DNA of 64,000 nt from an uncultured Candidatus Saccharibacteria bacterium (GCA_964638585.1 CAZXAN010000002.1:73291-137290); one strand, 5' to 3'. Counted from the stretch's first letter, positions 55,488-60,452 are shown. The notes: a model not told the origin generated them from the letters alone. Translations and numbers: made by a program.

Positions 55488-55492
55488 AACTA

Positions 55493-55558
55493 GTGATTAG
55501 GCTTTAGGCGTTAGGCTTTAGTAAATGCATTTGCTAGTGACTAGAGCCTAGTGCCTAA
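55493..55558. repeat. TAGGC/GCCTA palindromic intercistronic element, copy A (atpD-atpC spacer)
   Basis: GATTAGGCTTTAGGCGTTAGGCTTTAGTAAATGCATTTGCTAGTGACTAGAGCCTAGTGCCTAAC. The left half is TTAGGC repeats, the right half GCCTAG/GCCTAA repeats, with an AAATGCATTT centre. Confidence 0.6.
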
Positions 55559-56940
55559 CTAACCTGTTCAATCCCGCCCTTCATATAGAACGCTGCCTCC
55601 GGCTTGTCGTCGTGCTTCCCTTCTACTATTTCTTTAAAGCCTCTTACCGTTTCTTCGCGCGAAACATACTGACCTTTTGTTCCGGTAAATGGCTCACCGA
55701 CGAAGAACGGCTGGGAGAGAAATCTCTGTATCTTGCGAGCGCGCGTAACAGATAGTCTGTCATCTTCAGACAACTCATCCATACCCAATATGGCGATGAT
55801 GTCCTGCAAATCTTTATATCTCTGCAAAACTTGCTTCACTTCGTTTGCAACTTTGTAATGTTCTTCGCCAACGATCTCTGGAGTGAGTGCTGATGACGAT
55901 GATTCTAGCGGATCTATTGCAGGATAGATACCAAGTGAAGCCAATGCGCGTGAGAGCACTACGGTGCCGTCCAAATGTGCGAAGGTTGTGGCAGGCGCCG
56001 GGTCGGTGAGGTCGTCTGCTGGCACATACACTGCTTGTACTGAAGTGATTGAGCCTTTTTTTGTAGACGTAATGCGCTCTTGAAGTTTACCCATCTCTTC
56101 TGCGAGAGTCGGCTGGTAGCCCACTGCGCTCGGCACGCGACCGAGAAGCGACGATACTTCAGAGCCTGCCTGAATAAATCTGAAAACGTTATCCATAAAG
56201 AAGAGGACGTCCTTACCGCCTTCATCGCGGAAGTATTCTGCTTGGGTGAGACCAGAGAGCGCGACGCGGGCGCGAGCTCCCGGCACTTCGTTCATCTGAC
56301 CGAAGACGAGTGCAGTCTTCGCGAGCACTCCCGACTCCTTCATTTCATGATAGAGGTCATTACCTTCGCGCACGCGCTCGCCTACACCGGCGAAGACTGA
56401 ATACCCGCCGTGTTCGGTCGCAACATTTCTAATTAATTCTTGAATGAGCACCGTCTTCCCTACTCCTGCGCCGCCAAACAATCCAACTTTACCTCCCTTC
56501 AAAAATGGAATAATTAAGTCAATCGCCTTGATACCCGTTTCAAATACTTCAGCCTTGGTAGTCTGCTCGTCATATCTCGGTGCATCACGATGTATCGGCA
56601 GTCGCATAACATCGTCTGCCATCGCGCCCTGACCATCTACAGGTTCACCAAGGACGTTAAATAGCCTACCAAGAGTGGCTTCACCAACTGGCACAGAAAT
56701 AGGTGCACCTGTATTAGAGACTTTTACTCCGCGTGCGAGGCCTGCAGTCTCGTTCATAGAAATGGCGCGTACTCTATCAAGACCTAGGTGCGACGCGACT
56801 TCTAGCACTATGCGTCCGTGAGTGTCGGCCTTATCAATGACGAGTGCATCACCTATCGCTGGCTGTTTGTGCTGTCCGTGTTCTGTAGGGAAATGCACAT
56901 CCACTACTGGCCCTATGATTTCTGTAATTGTTCCTTTCAT
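55555..56940 (-). CDS. atpD: ATP synthase beta subunit
   Basis: Walker A GGAGVGKT and the full F1-beta length. Confidence 0.95.
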
Positions 56941-56947
56941 ATTTTAG

Positions 56948-57040
56948 TTGATTAGGCGCTAGGCTCTAGGCTCTAGGCGCTAGCATTATTTCTAATTTAT
57001 TTTTTATTTTTTTCATGTTGCTAATTCCTAGTGCCTAAAG
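56948..57040. repeat. TAGGC/GCCTA palindromic element, copy B (atpG-atpD spacer), with an AT-rich centre
   Basis: TTAGGCGCTAGGCTCTAGGCTCTAGGCGCTAGC ... CTAGTGCCTAAAGCCTAG. Confidence 0.55.
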
Positions 57041-57041
57041 C

Positions 57042-57956
57042 CTAGTTTGACAATGCTTCCCTGCCACCCACGATCTCGGAGACTTCGCGAGTGATGGCAG
57101 CTTGGCGAATTTTGTTGAAGAGTCGCGTGAGATCGTGCGCGACCTCTTTAGACTTGTCGGAGGCACTTTTCATCGCGACCATTCTCGCAGAATGCTCAGA
57201 CGCTTTCGCTTCAAGCAACATATTATAGAGCGCAACAGCCACAAGCCTTGGTACGAGGCGATTCAACACTTCTGCGCTCTCAGGTTCTACCGAATACGCT
57301 GTCGGCGGTTCTATCGCCGACAACGAGCTCCACTTGCCCTTACTCGGTACGATGCCTTCTACAATCTCTTTCAGGGCCGGCAGAGATATGGGCAAGAGCC
57401 TGCGCATCGTCGGCACTTGTTCAAAAGTAGATTTGAAATTGCTGTATATAGTTATCACTTTGTCATAATTCCCCCGCAAAAATCCTTCTGTTAGTTCTTG
57501 TGACAAACTCTCCATAAGAGCGAGAGGTACGTCGTCTCCCTTGTTTTCAAATGATTGTTTTATCGTATACGAACGACGCTTGAAATATTCTTCGCCCTTC
57601 TTGCCATACGCATATATCGTCACGTCACTGACCAACACAGAGTGTTGATCAAAGTACTCAACTGCCTTTTTTATGACACTACCGTTCAAAGCACCAGCAA
57701 GGCCTTTGTCGCTTGTTATGAGCACTAGTGCAATCTTCTTTCCTTCTCTGTGTAGAGCAAGCGGATGGCGTTTGACCTCTTCTGTGCCAGCGACACGAGT
57801 GAGGATAGAGAGTGCGGCGCGAGCATAGGGGCGACCGGCGATCGCTGACGCCTGCGTCTTACGCATCTTAACTGCAGAGACAGCCTCCATCGCACGCGTG
57901 ACTTTGTGCGTGCGCTCTGTCGCAGAAATTTTTGTTTTAATATCTTTAAGTGCCAT
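57042..57956 (-). CDS. atpG: ATP synthase gamma subunit
   Basis: [33 protein letters not shown] is the gamma N-terminal helix. Confidence 0.9.
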
Positions 57957-59496: not shown

Positions 59497-59498
59497 AA

Positions 59499-59533
59499 CT
59501 GGCTAGTTAATAGGCTTTAGGCGCTAGGCGCTA
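59499..59533. repeat. TAGGC-repeat element, short copy C (atpH-atpA junction; partly overlaps the atpH 3' end)
   Basis: GGCTAGTTAATAGGCTTTAGGCGCTAGGCGCTAG. Confidence 0.45.
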
Positions 59534-59982
59534 GTAACCTGTTGGTAAATGTGTATGAGAGCTCTCTTAGCTGAACGGTCAATTAACATATCTCCCTTTT
59601 GTGCTCGCCAACCGCTTATTATAGATGGGTTAACTATCGCGTGCTTTGCTACCATGCCAAAGCTTGTGGCAAGGCTGAGCGCCTCATCTGCATCTTTCAA
59701 GTGGGCTACCTCAACTTTTGCGCGCAGAGCATGTCGGCGAGCAGCCACCTTTCGCAATTCACGCACAATCTGCGAGAGCATCTTCATTCGTCCGGCACTC
59801 TTCAAGTGCACAATCAGCTTTGTTACAGCGGCATCAGACATTGTCTTGTCCTCAACCTCGGCAGCAGCTTCTAGCAGGCGTGTGTAATCGTCAATCATGA
59901 TGCTCGTCCCGCGTAGCTCTAGCGGAGTGGGATAGGATCTTTTCAGCAGCGAGTACAGCGAGTCGCGCAACATCCTTCTCAC
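59524..59982 (-). CDS. atpH: ATP synthase delta (OSCP) subunit, short
   Basis: OSCP-like helical pattern. Position between atpF and atpA. Confidence 0.7.
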   Translation of the reverse strand: MRRMLRDSLYSLLKRSYPTPLELRGTSIMIDDYTRLLEAAAEVEDKTMSDAAVTKLIVHLKSAGRMKMLSQIVRELRKVAARRHALRAKVEVAHLKDADEALSLATSFGMVAKHAIVNPSIISGWRAQKGDMLIDRSAKRALIHIYQQVTSA

Positions 59983-60364
59983 TCTCGCGCCTAGCTCGCT
60001 CTACCGTTTCTACCGCACGCAACTCTGCATCTTTAGCTATAGAGAAGGCACTCTCTTCAGCTTCTTTTATAAGCCTCGCCTTCTCCACACTCGCCGATTC
60101 GCGGGCAGAAGAGATGATATTTTCTGCCTGACTCTCGGCAACATTAATGCGCTTTGTTGATTCGTTGTCTGCACTGGCGAGCATCTCGCCTGCTTGCCGA
60201 GCATCTTCAACCCCTTTGGCAACAACGTCTCTCCTCTTATCCATCATCTCCATAACTGGCTTGTAGAGAAAGTACCAGAGAGCGAGAAGGACGATGCCGA
60301 AGTTTATCGCCTGAGCGAGAAGAAGAGACCATTTTATTCCGAATGCGTCCAGAAGCTGAGTCAT
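59891..60364 (-). CDS. atpF: ATP synthase subunit b
   Basis: N-terminal TM helix and a long charged coiled-coil. Confidence 0.8.
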   Translation of the reverse strand: MTQLLDAFGIKWSLLLAQAINFGIVLLALWYFLYKPVMEMMDKRRDVVAKGVEDARQAGEMLASADNESTKRINVAESQAENIISSARESASVEKARLIKEAEESAFSIAKDAELRAVETVERARRESEKDVARLAVLAAEKILSHSARATRDEHHD

Positions 60365-60367
60365 AGG

Positions 60368-60452
60368 AAGTTAGGATTTAGGCGCTAGGCTTTAGCGAAA
60401 TGCATTTTGTAATTACTAGCGCCCAGTGCCTAGAGCCTGTCATAGTGCCTAG
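60368..60452. repeat. TAGGC/GCCTA palindromic element, copy D (atpE-atpF spacer); near-identical core to copy A
   Basis: AGTTAGGATTTAGGCGCTAGGCTTTAGCGAAATGCATTTTGTAATTACTAGCGCCCAGTGCCTAGAGCCTGTCATAGTGCCTAG. Confidence 0.6.

Follow-up and report, generated by a model that had tools for sequence, protein, structure and literature searches.

Heptamer-built palindromic repeats in the intercistronic spacers of an atp operon from an uncultured bacterium of the candidate phyla radiation

The atp operon and its spacer elements

We examined a stretch of 64,000 nucleotides (the window) from an uncultured bacterium labelled Candidatus Saccharibacteria (GCA_964638585.1, CAZXAN010000002.1:73291-137290), in which spacers of the F1Fo ATP synthase (atp) operon hold runs of a 7-nt unit, YTAGGCN, followed by runs of its complement. 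The organism appears to be of the Patescibacteria/Paceibacteria type and hence a member of the candidate phyla radiation (CPR); a Paceibacteria/Kaiserbacteria affinity is suggested only by the names of AtpD homologues. The operon occupies the minus strand, with its genes ordered atpB-E-F-H-A-G-D-C:

60699-61451, minus strand, atpB
60453-60680, minus strand, atpE
59891-60364, minus strand, atpF
about 59524-59898, minus strand, atpH
57946-59496, minus strand, atpA
57042-57956, minus strand, atpG
55555-56940, minus strand, atpD
55242-55487, minus strand, atpC

An initial annotation of this DNA had placed a TAGGC/GCCTA palindrome in all non-overlapping junctions of the operon, counted as four. There are five such junctions, and the 18-nt atpB/atpE spacer carries no element, while the runs in the four named spacers were confirmed. 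Tandem Repeats Finder called a period of 7 at 55497, 56953, 59518 and 60416 (all four atp sites), and the doublet TAGGCNNTAGGC occurred 11 times in the window against 0.10 expected, a count that none of 100 shuffles reached. The pattern TAR-N4-TAR-N4-TAR gave 33 matches in the window against 5.8 expected, all except one within five spacers. The single hexamer YTAGGC was found 41 times against 56.5 expected, so that the hexamer by itself shows no excess.

The fifth spacer lies outside the operon. The initial annotation had found nothing similar in the other roughly 55 kb, but a half element occupies the rplM/rpsI junction, whose flanking genes matched Ribosomal_L13 and Ribosomal_S9. The contig L626 of the same genome, which is identical in the overlap and places window base 1 at L626:8890, adds 8.9 kb upstream, and it contains two further full copies 5-8 kb upstream of the window. 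A search beyond the operon thus found copies at rplM/rpsI, rplU/DEAD-box helicase and dnaB/recR, and the family is not specific to atp genes. At least seven copies are known in about 73 kb, every one between co-directional genes, and this genome has about 20 TAGGC/GCCTA doublets over the same 73 kb. The copies are as follows:

55488-55558, minus strand, element A, atpD/atpC junction, full hairpin with 34-nt arms
56941-57045, minus strand, element B, atpG/atpD junction, full hairpin around an AT-rich loop of 33 nt
59497-59535, minus strand, element C, atpH/atpA junction, half element with GCC-type units only
60365-60455, minus strand, element D, atpE/atpF junction, imperfect hairpin
29721-29751, minus strand, element E, rplM/rpsI junction, half element TAGGCGTTAGGCTCTAGACACTAG that fills the spacer
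L626, 5' of the window, element F, rplU/DEAD-box helicase junction, full hairpin
L626:3411-3493, element G, dnaB/recR junction, full hairpin

Written as mRNA, the elements have the form (UAGGCNY)n in the 5' arm and (UARNGCC)n in the 3' arm. The 5' arm of element A opens with the atpD stop codon (55555-55557) and reads UAG GCAC UAGGCUC UAGUCAC UAG; it is followed by the palindromic centre CAAAUGCAUUUAC and by the 3' arm UAAAGCC UAACGCC UAAAGCC UAAUCAC UAG UU, which leads directly to the AUG of atpC. Element B begins with the atpG stop codon (57042-57044) as UAG GCUU UAGGCAC UAGGAAU UAGCAAC, and its 3' arm, UAGCGCC UAGAGCC UAGAGCC UAGCGCC UAAUCAAC, ends 6 nt 5' of the atpD AUG. Element C reads AC UAGCGCC UAG CGCC UAAAGCC UAUUAAC UAGCCAGUU AUG, in which the second UAG is the atpH stop codon (59524-59526). 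In element D, the UAA stop codon of atpE (60453-60455) precedes the 5' arm C UAGGCAC UAUGACAGGCUC UAGGCAC UGGGCGC UAG, the centre includes AAAUGCAUUU, and the 3' arm UAAAGCC UAGCGCC UAAAUCC UAACUUCCU is followed by the AUG of atpF. Element E consists of UAG (the rplM stop codon, 29749-29751) GCGU UAGGCUC UAGACAC UAGGAAACAC and then the AUG of rpsI. Counted by eye in the mRNA sense across A-G, the variable position beside the GC core is A in about 10 of 18 units of one arm and about 10 of 19 of the other.

The loop of element B also holds a 16-codon mini-ORF (open reading frame; window 56966-57016, minus strand) that runs from the AT-rich loop into the 3' arm, where it stops (AUG AAA AAA AUA AAA AAU AAA UUA GAA AUA AUG CUA GCG CCU AGA GCC UAG), with AGGAAU 7 nt 5' of it; this mini-ORF is probably fortuitous.

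The position of the elements relative to the flanking genes follows a common design. A TAG of the element is the stop codon of the upstream gene in six of the seven copies, D being the exception, where the UAA stop lies 1 nt 5' of the first unit. The unit that supplies the stop is the first in A, B, E, F and G and the second in C, the GCC-type half copy, and the 3' arms finish 0-15 nt short of the next AUG. Since 7 equals 1 modulo 3, three consecutive units stop all three frames on both strands, and an element with stops in every frame supplies the stop of the upstream gene and cannot be read through.

Folding of the sense RNA, compared with shuffled sequences, gave -25.3 kcal/mol for A (z -3.1), -36.6 kcal/mol for B (z -6.2), -36.4 kcal/mol for F (z -4.1) and -31.4 kcal/mol for G (z -3.2), whereas D (-25.9 kcal/mol, z -1.7) was marginal. 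Element C has no complementary arm and forms no hairpin (z -0.35), and E, which has only TAGGC-type units, forms none either (z -0.14). The proposal of a hairpin at each of the four atp sites therefore stands for A and B and marginally for D, but fails for C. No U-tract follows any of the hairpins, whose tails are UAAUCACUAGUU, UAAUCAACUAAAAU and similar; a terminator scan called none of the five window spacers, and promoters were not called at the elements either. Scanning the window with Rfam 15 at the gathering score returned one tRNA only, and an E-value scan of 55400-60550 returned only two microRNA-precursor models, 60-65 bits below threshold.

The copies resemble one another outside the units as well. 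Elements A and D, which had been described as near-identical over about 65 nt, share the palindromic centre AAATGCATTT as claimed but are only similar overall (84% identity over 62 nt, with one gap). Elements D and F have the non-repeat segments TAGGCACTNTGACAGGCTYTAGGC and TAGGCACTNTGACAGGCT in common, and A and G have TAGGCACTAGGCTCTAG in common. Because such idiosyncratic segments are shared, the copies are paralogues and not independent look-alikes.

Relatives and the wider distribution of TAGGC heptamers

In about 95 kb from seven relatives, whose AtpD is 88-93% identical, no TAGGC doublet was present. In the five relatives whose contigs span the operon, the junctions from atpE to atpC measure 0-30 nt and carry no such hairpins; in L126 and L127, where only the atpD end is covered, the atpD/atpC gaps are 31 and 37 nt. 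The atpB/atpE spacer, element-free in the window too, reaches 75 nt in L129. The C-terminus of AtpD ends at the same residue position as in the relatives, indicating that element A starts exactly at the ancestral stop codon. As the atp spacers of the relatives are short and free of hairpins, this comparison marks the full hairpins as lineage-specific gains.

One relative carries related arrays. The atpH/atpA junction of L124 holds a degenerate run, ACTAGAGCCTAATGTCTAGCGCCTAAC..., which is a homologue of element C at the same site. At L124:17486-17569, a hairpin of the same design is built from another stop-codon heptamer, with (TAAGGTN)n, a loop and (NACCTTA)n. It lies between a DUF5671 gene and leuS, beginning just after the stop codon of the former and ending 7 nt short of the AUG of the latter. 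The 5' units of this hairpin look like an extended Shine-Dalgarno (SD) sequence (UAAGG) and the 3' units like an anti-SD. We also noted that the spacer following atpC (36-38 nt) is conserved in five of the seven relatives (L124, L126-L129) and ends in GCGTATACT-N6-7-ATG, where GCGTATACT is a -10-like box at a leaderless distance from the next gene.

Outside this group, an exact scan with TAGGCNNTAGGCNNTAGGCNNTAG, using one genome per species, gave at least 120 loci, compared to about 17 matches that we estimate for uniform sequence. The matches fall in many phyla, among them Acidobacteriota, Bacteroidota, Cyanobacteria, Planctomycetota, Verrucomicrobiota, Pseudomonadota and several CPR groups. 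Across loci the TAGGC core is invariant and the two flanking positions vary. In CPR genomes, mixed units lie within operons at rpsS-rplV, after rplX, at nrdA-nrdB and at dnaB-ybaB, and the nrdA-nrdB copy is a full hairpin (-38.7 kcal/mol). A version of the A/G arm with 22 specified bases matched 14 contigs from metagenomes, with GC contents of 33-65%; one such match lies between rplP and rpmC. A literature search for TAGGC unit strings found no paper containing them.

The dnaB gene is followed directly by an element both here (dnaB/recR) and in an Uhrbacteria metagenome-assembled genome (MAG; dnaB/ybaB, L109:7085-7283), where the element runs to about 24 GCC-type units; the shared location may be a coincidence or may reflect a preferred site. 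In a Saccharibacteria MAG (L043), a TAGGC-type half array (1068-1094) and a GCC-type half array (1456-1483) occupy successive spacers and bracket one small gene, which encodes a 119-aa 23S rRNA-intervening-sequence protein (PF05635).

TAGGC heptamers were also present in at least 120 viral contigs. In three prophage-like viral contigs of 64-69% GC (L208:1706-5483, L182 and L197), (TAGGCAR)n-loop-(YTGCCTA)n hairpins occupy three to four gene junctions in succession, and the stop of the ORF falls within the first unit; this is the same architecture as in the atp operon but in an unrelated GC-rich host. Scans of viral contigs with other heptamers, tried as composition-matched controls, gave at least 120 for TGAGC, at least 120 for CAGTG, 113 for TAGCG, 37 for TACGG and 15 for GTACG. 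These controls were set aside as confounded, since the highest counts are lower bounds and the N positions create stops or overlapping families; by these counts, TAGGC is one of several common heptamers.

Polarity and the heptamer-repeat class

Pooled over loci, TAGGC arrays of at least three units had a complementary array downstream in 118 cases and upstream in 0. The G-rich arm is likewise 5' in A, B and D of the window and in F and G outside it. Among inverted heptamer pairs whose units lack any search core, the 5' arm had more G than C in 131 and more C than G in 32 (about 4:1), and over all fetched loci (L001-L649), which comprise many units, the G-rich arm was 5' in 458 versus 55, on both strands. 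The rule that holds is that the G-rich arm comes first. A rule in which the arm bearing the stop codons comes first was rejected, because (CAGTGGT)n...(ACCACTG)n has a stop-free 5' arm and TGA in its 3' arm. One idea for the polarity is co-transcriptional sequestering of the C-rich, Rho-attracting arm.

At loci of at most 58% GC, unpaired arrays adjoin the stop codon of a gene in the same sense, 19 of 25 being no more than 11 nt away, and their contexts were convergent in 15 cases and divergent in 2. Some arrays lie in the GCCTA sense just 5' of start codons. A test of whether open frames end in the array was abandoned as biased, since an array stops every frame, and tests of flank orientation and gene distance were used in its place.

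These rules match those of a class of bacterial intergenic heptamer repeats that has been reported but not explained, and YTAGGCN is a new family in this class. Rehm et al. (2015; PMC4692102) described the G-rich heptamers GGGAATC in Xanthomonas and GGGGAYT in Nostoc as mostly intergenic tandem units that lie nearest the ORF on their 5' side, on the coding strand after a gene (often over its stop) and on the non-coding strand before a gene. In Xanthomonas, 70-75 "convergent" pairs of GGGAATC, one per strand, can form stem-loops, with few such pairs in Nostoc. The repeats are depleted between divergent genes and show no link with mobile elements, no function has been established for them, and Xanthomonas transcripts start or stop at heptamer repeats able to form G-quadruplexes more often than at control repeats (PMC4692102). 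The TAGGC arrays share the 7-nt tandem unit, the position at the end of ORFs and the convergent pairs, and their counts obey the same rules; period 7, ORF-end position and G-rich-first orientation, three marks of the convergent-pair class (Mrazek 2007; Rehm 2015), were all found here. They differ in that YTAGGCN cannot form G-quadruplexes, a stop codon is contained in every unit (in the CPR type, on both strands), the units vary at two positions, and the copies share non-repeat segments as paralogues do. Moreover, the host is an ultra-compact CPR genome in which the elements fill entire intercistronic spacers of essential operons.

A second comparison is offered by TAACTGA, a heptamer that marine Beggiatoaceae, Cyanobacteria and Bacteroidetes carry as direct repeats (MacGregor 2015; PMC4679880). 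TAACTGA provides forward stops in three frames, often lies over the upstream stop and ends a few nt before the next start; canonical SD sequences are usually absent, the repeats occur in ribosomal-protein operons, and a translational role was proposed but is unproven, with binding of S1, Csp (cold-shock protein) or CsrA suggested for heptamers that lack an SD (PMC4679880). In the present elements, a TAR likewise recurs each 7 nt, a unit supplies the stop, the next start follows on the 3' side and SD sequences are not enriched. The unit here is YTAGGCN, however, and the full copies are inverted pairs, whereas TAACTGA forms no hairpin and is neither G-rich nor GC-clamped; its sets are nearly all direct, with one indirect repeat among 169 sets (PMC4679880).

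Origin of the elements and their possible consequences

On balance, we favor the reading that the atp spacers hold members of a dispersed, heptamer-built palindromic family, with stops in all frames, that is tolerated at gene junctions and does not constitute atp-specific control. Their identity as dispersed palindromic repeats is largely shown. The arrays may grow by slippage, and whole or half elements would be copied between sites by ectopic conversion, template switching or a transposase. The elements would be tolerated at the junctions of a compact genome because each unit contains TAG or TAA. The options put forward by the initial annotation included a genome-specific family like repetitive extragenic palindromic (REP) sequences or MITEs (miniature inverted-repeat transposable elements), which came closest of the three given the non-atp copies, their paralogy and their absence from relatives, although the family is not merely genome-specific.

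What such elements do to the mRNA can be considered from the translation context of this genome. SD sequences precede 15% of the 74 window ORFs, compared to 10% at random positions, which is no enrichment. For 24% of ORFs, versus 5% at random (five-fold), a TANNWT hexamer has its end 5-10 nt 5' of the start codon, examples being the hexamers 5' of the starts at 47983, 52569, 24135, 24502 and 34633. These -10-like hexamers suggest that many mRNAs are leaderless or have very short leaders, and in such an SD-poor setting internal cistrons probably depend on termination-reinitiation. Full copies are predicted to fold into interrupted hairpins of about 20-25 bp that begin at the stop codon and end about 8-19 nt short of the next AUG. 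A ribosome ending at the first UAG would melt the base of the stem, which otherwise would abut the next start region, and the likeliest effect may be that downstream initiation is coupled to upstream termination. Translational coupling is accordingly a plausible consequence of the geometry of full copies, and the most plausible one; a barrier to 3'-exonucleases or a substrate for RNase III would be a secondary effect and ranks second.

Several observations weigh against this reading. The atp operon is a local hot spot, with elements at four of its seven junctions versus one of the 47 remaining junctions between co-directional genes of the window (p about 5e-4 in a hypergeometric test calculated by hand, which leaves out the junctions in the 8.9 kb upstream, where two copies lie), a clustering that pure neutrality fails to explain. 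Strain differences were looked for among contigs with identical AtpD, AtpE, L9 or histidine kinase; seven contigs from six ENA/Logan assemblies showed no variation in unit number and were all 100% identical, so that they probably represent one clonal population. These contigs accordingly gave no sign of instability like that of simple-sequence repeats. No transposase was seen in a search that reached about 73 kb of the genome, and no consistent target-site duplication was evident, A being readable as TAG...TAG but F and G not. The coupling and stability effects, for their part, are read from geometry. The A-rich variable position in both arms places regularly spaced A.A or C.A mismatches in the stems, and fold energies do not consistently favor either strand, the antisense RNA being more stable for A, D and G. 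As the sense strand has no consistent advantage, there is no signature of selection on an mRNA hairpin. The lack of sense bias, the mismatched A-rich positions and the placement at both up- and down-steps of subunit number argue against a specifically evolved RNA function.

The alternative that first suggests itself is a set of dedicated atp regulators, in which the hairpins would set the translation of F1Fo subunits or the stability of mRNA segments. Four of the five window elements do lie in the atp operon, the folds of A and B clearly beat shuffles (D marginally), and expression of the E. coli atp operon is tuned by intercistronic mRNA structure and translational coupling. The junction structures described by McCarthy and co-workers in the E. 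coli operon reportedly include an atpH-atpA coupling and an atpE enhancer, with downstream initiation requiring upstream translation; they are said to be unique sequences, partly within coding regions and conserved with the operon. The present elements resemble them in forming mRNA secondary structure at atp junctions but differ in being copies of a dispersed repeat family. The role in tuning subunit ratios that had been suggested for them is largely refuted by the non-atp copies of the same family, and further speaking against it are the hairpin-free operons of close relatives, copy C, which forms no hairpin, and the lack of consistent logic in their sites (c-to-b, down; delta-to-alpha, up; gamma-to-beta, up; beta-to-epsilon, down), the largest step, a-to-c, having no element. 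We regard this explanation as improbable. Still less credit is due to the idea that the hairpins are intrinsic, possibly bidirectional, terminators or attenuators within the operon, which is very improbable: they are stable, contain GC and lie directly 3' of stop codons, unpaired and paired arrays are enriched at convergent and depleted at divergent gene ends, and the Xanthomonas transcripts noted above start or stop at heptamers, but U-tracts and terminator calls are lacking and the sites separate cistrons that are essential and transcribed together (atp, ribosomal proteins, nrdAB). The 3' arm here is, moreover, C-rich; examples of intrinsic terminators of E. coli have G-rich 3' arms. Chance or k-mer bias, with no real element, would agree with the absence of a hexamer excess, but it is already refuted, and its likelihood is negligible, as the 7-nt-spaced doublets exceed expectation as given above, all fall in five spacers and come with inverted partners and significant folds.

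More in keeping with the data, though still rather unlikely in our view, is an element mobilized by a transposase, of REP/REPIN (REP doublet) or MITE type, in which a REP-associated tyrosine transposase (RAYT), an IS200-like or another transposase moves the palindrome and the heptamers are its recognition or cleavage motif. Paralogous copies do share idiosyncratic segments and a centre, and the distribution is patchy, with the doublets of this genome set against none in its relatives. REPINs, too, have conserved 5' tags at the outer ends of the inverted pair, and REPs lie 3' of ORFs, between unidirectional and convergent genes (PMC3733652). Against such an origin, no single GTAG/CGTC tag stands by a unique stem (YTAG recurs each 7 nt), A, F and G lack an evident target-site duplication, half elements stand alone (C, E and L043), and the same units occur in many phyla and in genomes of 33% to 65% GC, for which convergent behavior of simple-sequence repeats fits better; heptamer repeats also had no association with mobile elements in Rehm et al. 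(PMC4692102). Among the Pfam-matched called genes of L121, L122 and L626 there was no Y1_Tnp, the only recombinase being a Xer-like Phage_integrase. Periodic sites for a protein on DNA or single-stranded RNA (one OB-fold, cold-shock or S1-type domain per heptamer, or a nucleoid protein), with the hairpin incidental, are unlikelier again. The invariant TAGGC core with two variable flanking positions, the strict G-rich-first polarity, which is independent of gene orientation, and the S1, Csp or CsrA binding proposed for TAACTGA heptamers (PMC4679880) would suit such sites; however, many heptamer units show the same architecture and polarity, which counts against a single binder with sequence specificity, this analysis identified no candidate protein, and the paired arms of full copies would hide single-stranded sites. 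Finally, the stop-to-start hairpin, with the stop codon at the 5' base of its stem and the next AUG just beyond the 3' base, could be a translational device used across phyla, by which a terminating ribosome re-initiates over a 70-100-nt spacer without an SD in the manner of ribosome shunting, a notion that we hold unlikely. Were it true, lineages that are poor in SD sequences and of leaderless type, CPR bacteria among them, would benefit most from the device, and the G-rich-first polarity would reflect a constraint of co-transcriptional folding or Rho avoidance.

Comparison with known repeat families places the preferred reading, that of a dispersed heptamer-built family, more closely. Correia/nemis elements of Neisseria and ERIC (enterobacterial repetitive intergenic consensus) elements are transcribed with flanking genes, their long hairpins stabilize or destabilize the mRNA, and Correia hairpins are substrates of RNase III. 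Both have defined terminal inverted repeats, target-site duplications and unique internal sequence. The present elements resemble these co-transcribed MITEs of Neisseria and Yersinia as small palindromic insertions adjoining coding regions (PMC3733652), but neither Correia nor ERIC is known to be made up of tandem heptamers or to begin at a stop codon; of the features of MITEs, the arms here act as inverted repeats, and A, F and G have no consistent flanking duplication. Mycobacterial interspersed repetitive units (MIRUs) of Mycobacterium tuberculosis, described by Supply et al. in 1997, reportedly occupy intercistronic spacers of polycistronic operons, in contact with the stop codon upstream and the start codon downstream, a contact said to suggest translational coupling. 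They are said to be 40-100-bp direct repeats with small ORFs bridging stop and start, whereas the present units stop every frame and form hairpins.

REP, BIME (bacterial interspersed mosaic element) and REPIN sequences are like the present family as short extragenic palindromes in many copies, patchy among relatives; they are mostly 3' of ORFs and co-transcribed, are presumed to influence mRNA stability by forming RNA hairpins, and have head-to-head tags on the outside. A REP is a 20-40 bp stem-loop with one unpaired GTAG/CGTC tag beside a unique 5-13-bp stem (Di Nocera et al. 2013, PMC3733652), GTAG-type REPs being associated with RAYT transposases and CGTC-type REPs apparently having no dedicated one (PMC3733652; Bertels and Rainey 2011, PMC3116915). 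Here, by contrast, the stem itself consists of tandem tagged 7-mers, and there is no single tag with a unique stem.

If the reading of a dispersed family is right, these elements do not represent a new regulation of ATP synthase but add a sequence-defined YTAGGCN family to the poorly understood intergenic heptamers, extending them into ultra-small CPR genomes, where each intergenic base is costly, and into viral contigs. Because heptamer repeats are without an established function or generating mechanism, the supply of stop codons (six of seven copies) and the G-rich-first polarity merit explanation. In practical terms, the elements make long, artificial-looking spacers that can mislead gene callers. 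The atpF start, for instance, is annotated differently in identical DNA, at 6688-7050 in L121 (120 aa) and at 6203-6676 in L122 (157 aa), and element D, which lies 5' of the true atpF start, apparently misled the gene callers.

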